NCBI GenBank assembly: GCA_000004695.1
Contig: CM000151.3
Location: 4,192,001 to 4,256,000, forward strand
Direction: 5' to 3'
From: Dictyostelium discoideum
Lineage: Eukaryota
Length of the DNA stretch: 64,000 nt
The notes under the pieces are model-generated. The model worked only from the letters and a program-made list of their open reading frames with translations. It was not told the DNA's origin and did no database searches. Shown one piece after another: positions 20,309 through 20,544 of this stretch. The position numbers were made by a program, and so were the translations under genes. Position 1 is the stretch's first letter; every line of letters begins with the position of its first letter.

Positions 20309-20544
20309 TTATACATTCTTATTTATTATAATCAATACCAACAACAACAACAACAACAACAACAACAACAACAACAACAACAACAACAACAACAACAACA
20401 ACAACAACAACAACAACAACAACAACAACAACAACAACAACAACAACAACAACAACAATCATCATCACCACAATCATTATCATCACCACAATCGTTATCA
20501 TCATCACCTTGTTGGTATTGATTATAATAAATAAGAATGTATAA
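20309..20544. repeat. (CAA)40 microsatellite flanked by a perfect 36-bp inverted repeat (stem-loop / MITE-like unit)
   Basis: IR-L 20309-20344 ttatacattcttatttattataatcaataccaacaa is the exact reverse complement of IR-R 20509-20544. The interior is (CAA)n followed by TCATCA-type repeats. Confidence 0.85.

Follow-up and report, generated by a model that had tools for sequence, protein, structure and literature searches.

Template-switch mutations can build perfect stems tens of bases long in a single event (PMC5453318; PMC8794818), and patterns of up to 59 bp have been reported (PMC8794818). One arm is likewise copied from the other in quasipalindrome correction and in fold-back (snap-back) synthesis (bioRxiv 10.1101/2023.08.09.552703; PMC8604942). 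Terminal inverted repeats are also carried by MITEs and by the multi-copy thug-S elements of Dictyostelium discoideum, copies of which are a reported source of miRNAs (PMC4894637, PMC6161686). Here we analysed a 64-kb window, the whole stretch of D. discoideum DNA under study, and describe a 236-bp block in which two inverted arms of 36 nt bracket a (CAA)40 microsatellite.

The block resembles the template-switch mutations described by Loytynoja & Goldman (2017; PMC5453318) and Monttinen & Loytynoja (2022; PMC8794818) in that its derived arm reproduces neighbouring sequence exactly in reverse complement, with a conserved source arm and a novel target arm, and in being lineage-specific and short-range; its arm length of 36 nt also falls within the reported range. 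It differs from them in that the arms stand 164 nt apart with two expanded arrays between them, and in that about 57 nt of ancestral DNA were lost there too. This likeness is drawn on shared features and two outgroups. With quasipalindrome correction and fold-back synthesis the block shares perfect arms and an association with breaks and nearby rearrangements, but no prior imperfect palindrome is detectable in the relatives, and the block represents creation of a palindrome, not its correction. Like MITEs and thug-S, the latter compared here by description, it is small and non-coding and has terminal inverted repeats; unlike them, it has no target-site duplication (TSD), no second copy in the sequence searched and no clean empty site. 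Finally, (CAA)40 shares motif, length class and purity with the (CAA)n/(AAC)n arrays that encode poly-Q, poly-N or poly-T in D. discoideum, many of which occur in this window, whereas it lies outside any annotated gene or long open reading frame (ORF) and is flanked by an inverted repeat.

A perfect inverted repeat around a CAA tract

The perfect 36-bp inverted repeat of the original prediction proved correct to the base, its two arms, IR-L and IR-R, matching in reverse complement at 36/36 positions (Table 1). Pairing ends sharply, since the next five positions outward and the next four inward are all mismatched. The analytic chance expectation of such a repeat is about 6e-11, and in 30 first-order Markov simulations of 64 kb each the longest inverted repeats measured 15-20 nt, which bears out the earlier claim that the match is far beyond chance in 64 kb. 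The window is 20% G+C and contains long runs of A and of T. Among its exact inverted repeats whose arms stand at most 1 kb apart, this one is the longest and the sole top-ranked one that is not a homopolymer run, and it is the only such repeat found when mismatches are permitted and a complexity filter is applied. We found no second copy of the 36-nt arm in the 64-kb window, allowing up to eight mismatches, and no arm copies in the sibling-genome loci L004 and L005 (42 kb). Metagenome, prokaryotic-genome and viral collections also gave no copy, an uninformative result since Dictyostelium sequence is absent from them.

Table 1. Positions of the block, its parts and its neighbours in the window
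Feature	Position	Strand	Description
DDB_G0274853 last exon and stop (AX4 model)	19894-20112	+	tblastn of the AX4 C-terminus to 19894-20109
Left junction of D. discoideum-specific segment	20292-20308	+	TATTTTTATTCTCTATG; holds ATG 20306-20308 abutting IR-L
ATG-to-TGA ORF, 71 aa	20306-20521	+	MLYILIYYNQY-Q40-SSSPQSLSSPQSLSSSPCWY
IR-L (left arm)	20309-20344		36 nt, TTATACATTCTTATTTATTATAATCAATACCAACAA; exact reverse complement of 20509-20544
(CAA)40 microsatellite	20339-20458	+	TRF, 100% pure
Spacer tail	20459-20508	+	TCA, then 18-nt tandem unit x2.6 (TCATCACCACAATCATTA-like)
IR-R (right arm)	20509-20544		36 nt; exact inverted match to IR-L
Peroxiredoxin gene	21176-22537	+	AhpC-TSA / 1-Cys Prx C-terminal domain

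Between the arms, the predicted interval of about 164 bp with its (CAA)40 measures 164 nt (20345-20508). This spacer consists throughout of two slippage-type tandem arrays, namely (CAA)40, whose first two units are the last 6 nt of IR-L, and the 18-nt unit ATCATCACCACAATCATT repeated 2.6 times at 20461-20507 with 93% matches (TRF). A poly-Q-encoding tail is found in an upstream gene (13364-15247); it was ruled out as a donor of the interior, as it ends in QQQSPSSKF* and has only CAACAATCA in common with it.

Other long pure triplet arrays of the window are (AAT)59 at 801-977, (TTA)44 at 5660-5791, (TAA)26 at 32500-32577, (TTG)47 at 36317-36457, (AAT)46 at 38008-38145 and (AAT)56 at 55463-55630, most of these six sitting within long open frames. 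Such arrays are typical of the homopolymer-encoding tracts of D. discoideum, and 40 units is an ordinary length here.

The block is intergenic on chromosome 2, between DDB_G0274853 and the peroxiredoxin gene. On its left, the product of the gene at 18021-19418 is 100% identical to a D. discoideum protein and clusters with AX4 DDB_G0274853 (XP_644049), whose AX4 model encodes 533 aa and has its stop codon 197 nt before the start of the block. On its right, the peroxiredoxin ATG follows IR-R by about 630 nt. In the annotation of a second D. discoideum assembly (GCA_054883475.1, locus L001) no genes are called in the block interval, and a tRNA scan returned none. The stretch from the block to the peroxiredoxin ATG includes a poly-T run of 45 nt (20798-20842) and a T-rich tract of 82 nt (21051-21132); the two D. 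discoideum assemblies disagree by 8 nt on the length of the poly-T.

In that independent assembly the block is base-for-base identical. Since the second assembly carries the arms and (CAA)40 unchanged, the block is real and not an assembly artefact; the (CAA)40 length is also the same, although the two strains are too close for this constancy to be informative. Over 13.4 kb the assemblies differ by 11 SNPs and 16 indels, the latter mostly in homopolymers. Fifteen of the 16 indels (window 11970-25449) are shorter in L001, mostly in A/T homopolymer runs, which looks like a bias of sequencing or assembly rather than biology.

Orthologous DNA in two sibling genomes

As outgroups we used two genomes designated "D. 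cf. discoideum", a closer one (loci L002 and L004) and a more distant one (L003 and L005). Identity of the flanking protein is 87% in one of these genomes and 69% in the other. Pairwise local alignments were judged against shuffles (500 for the L002 test); alignments in DNA of more than 85% A+T are fragile, and the comparison covers these two outgroup genomes and two near-identical D. discoideum assemblies. The arms and the interior are absent from both D. cf. discoideum genomes, while the flanks of the spacer are collinear with them on both sides.

To the right, window positions 20520-20578 align to L002 with a score of 70, where the best of 500 shuffles reached 54, and the outer 25 nt of IR-R (20520-20544) are thus common to the closer relative. 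Identity to L002 from position 20533 is 40/46, and orthology to the more distant relative is seen at positions 20615-20680 (score 79). To the left, collinear homology with L002 and L003 stops at about 20291-20301, and nothing in the relatives matches IR-L significantly (p ~0.1). Because the outer 25 nt of IR-R and the right flank align to L002 and IR-L finds no significant match, we infer that IR-R, in its outer 25 nt, is ancestral and served as source and that IR-L is its derived inverted copy; the inner 11 nt of IR-R (TTGTTGGTATT) have no demonstrable ancestry in the relatives. A local palindromic duplication, one of the origins first put forward for this repeat, agrees with that polarity.

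About 228 nt in D. discoideum (20292-20519) stand in for about 57 nt of ancestral sequence, TGTGAGAATCTAG included. L002 and L003 both have the motif TGTGAGAATCTAGG at the corresponding position, the window lacks it, and the change was therefore a replacement and not a simple insertion. We also considered whether an imperfect palindrome existed in the ancestor and became perfect afterwards. This idea found no support, since the corresponding 100-nt stretches of L002 and L003 did not fold better than their shuffled versions (z = +0.5 and +1.9).

No differences separate the arms in 72 positions, whereas intergenic divergence from L002 is about 19%. Judged by this comparison, the repeat would have originated in about the most recent 44% of the period that has passed since the L002 split, barring gene conversion or selection on the arms. 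The block is species-specific and most likely young.

Origin of the block

We propose, with a probability of about 0.6, that the block is a young D. discoideum-specific rearrangement scar produced by a template switch and slippage. We infer the template switch as mechanism, the succession of its steps, the seeding of the CAA tract and the neutrality of the result. During replication or break repair, a nascent strand would have switched template over a short range and read about 36 nt off the opposite strand. An inverted copy of what is today IR-R would thereby have been written a short distance upstream as IR-L, overwriting about 57 nt of ancestral sequence, and slippage would then have built, or gone on building, the two arrays that now separate the arms, (CAA)40 and that of the 18-mer. 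The CAACAA within IR-L, complementary to TTGTTG in IR-R, may have seeded the CAA expansion, since the array starts within IR-L at that very hexamer. At least two events are needed, the inverted copy and then the expansions, because source and target lie 164 nt apart and 57 nt were lost at the same time.

A template switch is favoured because a source arm conserved in an outgroup and a novel target arm form the signature by which such mutations are called. In addition, the derived segment is an exact reverse complement of its neighbour, and both sibling genomes lack it and show no prior hairpin at the site. Against it, the switch points show no microhomology, and more than one event is required. 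The setting favours a scar, as a 3.2-kb inversion with deletions in D. discoideum and inverted duplications in L004 mark the vicinity as prone to rearrangement. The block would then be a natural example of one replication or repair error that creates a long perfect hairpin de novo, in an organism outside the animals, yeast and bacteria in which template switching has mostly been studied. Its polarity is resolved, with IR-R as source and IR-L as copy, and its age is bounded. It also illustrates that in D. discoideum a long, pure CAA tract can stand beyond any gene, here in a small region that has been rearranged repeatedly in this species group. If it is not transcribed and diced, it would be an ordinary neutral scar of little wider consequence.

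The composition of the interior could speak for another origin. Its GC content is 33-38%, against 9-14% in the flanks, with the spacer tail at a coding-like 38%; moreover, (CAA)40 is the sole CAA/AAC/ACA-class repeat of at least six units in the window that lies outside long ORFs. Both features count against the scar and could point to a captured coding fragment: a poly-Q exon fragment from elsewhere would have filled a double-strand break, one end of which was sealed by a fold-back that copied the adjacent flank in inverted orientation. The CAA frame does use the preferred D. discoideum codons CAA, TCA, CCA and TTA, the loss of about 57 nt is what a processed break predicts, and the inversion with its deletions occurred about 600 bp away in the same lineage. 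Nevertheless, no DNA resembling the spacer tail was found elsewhere in the window or in the loci compared, no protein matched the tail in three sense frames among 5.8 billion clusters, and the tail is itself a simple 18-mer array that slippage could have produced, all of which leaves a captured filler unlikely. The same replacement of ancestral DNA bears on whether the block is a MITE, that is, a non-autonomous DNA transposon whose 36-bp terminal inverted repeats carry the microsatellite. Perfect terminal inverted repeats on a 236-bp unit without coding capacity, found in one species and absent from its siblings, would suit such an element, and a palindromic TA/TATA duplication could hide inside the arm ends. 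As the original prediction had remarked, however, no TSD is apparent, and this holds for direct repeats of 2-11 bp flanking the arms. No other copy occurs in 64 kb of D. discoideum and 42 kb of sibling DNA, and in place of a clean empty site the relatives show orthology that reaches 25 nt inside IR-R, with 57 nt of ancestral DNA lost from D. discoideum. The small TIR element that had been suggested is therefore not upheld, and we consider a transposon origin very improbable.

What the block might encode was judged in the same way. The 71-aa ORF could represent a de novo gene for a poly-Q micro-protein newly born in D. discoideum, as it is complete from ATG to TGA in the preferred-codon frame, and very long poly-Q tracts are tolerated in this species (PMC9234386). 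Yet no gene with this product is on record, the AX4 model of DDB_G0274853 ends upstream at 20112, and the ORF lacks homologues in all sense frames and does not occur in the relatives. No protein was found to share three 5-residue words with it. Its hydrophobic N-terminal residues are a mere translation of the A+T-rich arm. In D. discoideum a T at position -3 with no A run makes a poor start context, and this is the context of the ORF. With neither homologues, annotation nor conservation to mark it as protein-coding, the ORF is probably not a gene, and the birth of a micro-protein here seems to us extremely improbable. The dismissal of the ORFs in this interval as repeat shadows largely stands. 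The poly-Q ORF does have its own ATG and TGA, yet it is unannotated, confined to this species and devoid of homologues. A neighbouring 430-aa ORF, looked up exactly as a called gene, likewise gave no record. 

A structured RNA is the other candidate product. Folded in both orientations, as had been recommended, the block is predicted to be stable as RNA on the plus strand (-43.1 kcal/mol, z = -12.4, with a 37-bp stem) and on the minus strand (-68.2 kcal/mol, z = -7.4), and as plus-strand DNA (-28.8 kcal/mol, z = -8.5). In the plus-strand model the CAA loop is unpaired, giving a 164-nt unstructured CAA-rich loop on a stem of 36-37 bp, and a single-strand hairpin is predicted to be strongly favoured. 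If the block were transcribed and its perfect stem diced, it would be a newborn siRNA- or miRNA-like gene arisen from an inverted duplication. New miRNA hairpins are documented to arise by template switching (PMC8794818; bioRxiv 10.1101/2023.04.19.537475), and most D. discoideum miRNA loci are intergenic (PMC6161686). Against this, Rfam returned nothing, whether 3 kb were scanned with a permissive threshold or the whole window with the gathering threshold, and no arm substring occurs in the one searchable D. discoideum miRNA supplement (PMC6161686) or in the full texts searched. A 164-nt loop on a fully perfect stem is atypical for a pre-miRNA, and the block is not conserved in the relatives. 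Hence the hairpin-RNA precursor suggested earlier holds as regards the predicted fold and fails as regards known families, the searched supplement and the shape of the loop, and we regard such a gene as quite unlikely. Equal doubt attaches to the broader idea that the duplication gave rise to a new functional unit, either a diced hairpin RNA or a stem-clamped microsatellite whose arms drove or stabilised the 40-unit expansion. In the latter version the arms would pair in single-stranded DNA and loop out the whole repeat. Were the idea true, the block would be a dated, single-species case, from an amoebozoan, in which template switching gave rise to an RNA gene or to an element of repeat dynamics; transcription and dicing of the hairpin would make it a dated de novo birth of a small-RNA gene.

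Extrusion of a cruciform from duplex DNA requires perfect arms with a very short spacer. Since the spacer here is 164 nt, extrusion is unlikely, contrary to what had been suggested for this palindrome. An upstream motif, T-rich and then G, resembles the one reported for pri-miRNA start sites; with 228 occurrences in the window it is non-discriminating as evidence for such a site.

Rearrangements around the locus

Compared with both D. cf. discoideum genomes, D. discoideum has a 3.2-kb segment that includes the peroxiredoxin gene (19711-22942) in inverted orientation; the corresponding intervals are 12543-17223 in L004 and 12801-15292 in L005. Since the two relatives agree with each other, it is probably in D. 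discoideum that the order was changed. Beside the inversion, D. discoideum has lost the DNA equivalent to L004 11644-12543 and to L004 12689-14447, the latter with a 280-aa gene; also lost is L004 17223-18995, which holds most of a 302-aa gene. The 36-bp inverted repeat was considered as a mark of an inversion breakpoint and rejected, as the left breakpoint maps to about 19690-19711, 600 bp off, and the block lies inside the inverted segment.

The last exon of DDB_G0274853 in the AX4 model matches L004 16813-17009 and L005 15010-15126, both on the minus strand. In the relatives, the sequence of this exon is the 3' end of a different gene, located beyond the peroxiredoxin gene, and the inversion appears to have given rise to a chimeric gene model for DDB_G0274853. 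Another D. discoideum annotation of this locus ends at 19418 (465 aa), without that exon.

Two short-range inverted duplications are also found in L004. One of them (11901-11983 / 12077-12159) has 83-nt arms that are identical at 82/83 positions and are separated by a 93-nt spacer, and it is located where the left breakpoint of D. discoideum maps. Another (14227-14294 / 14575-14642) has 68-nt arms, identical at 65/68 positions, one of which is the 3' coding end of peroxiredoxin; since it copies peroxiredoxin coding sequence, this duplication is clearly not a mobile element. The L004 duplications share the architecture of the block, which suggests that a recurrent mechanism may act at this locus. 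In L005, segments 12631-12785 and 12801-12960 show a duplicate of the peroxiredoxin 3' end adjoining the gene, and a 50-nt imperfect inverted repeat, matching at 44/50 positions, lies at 18929-18978 / 19415-19464.
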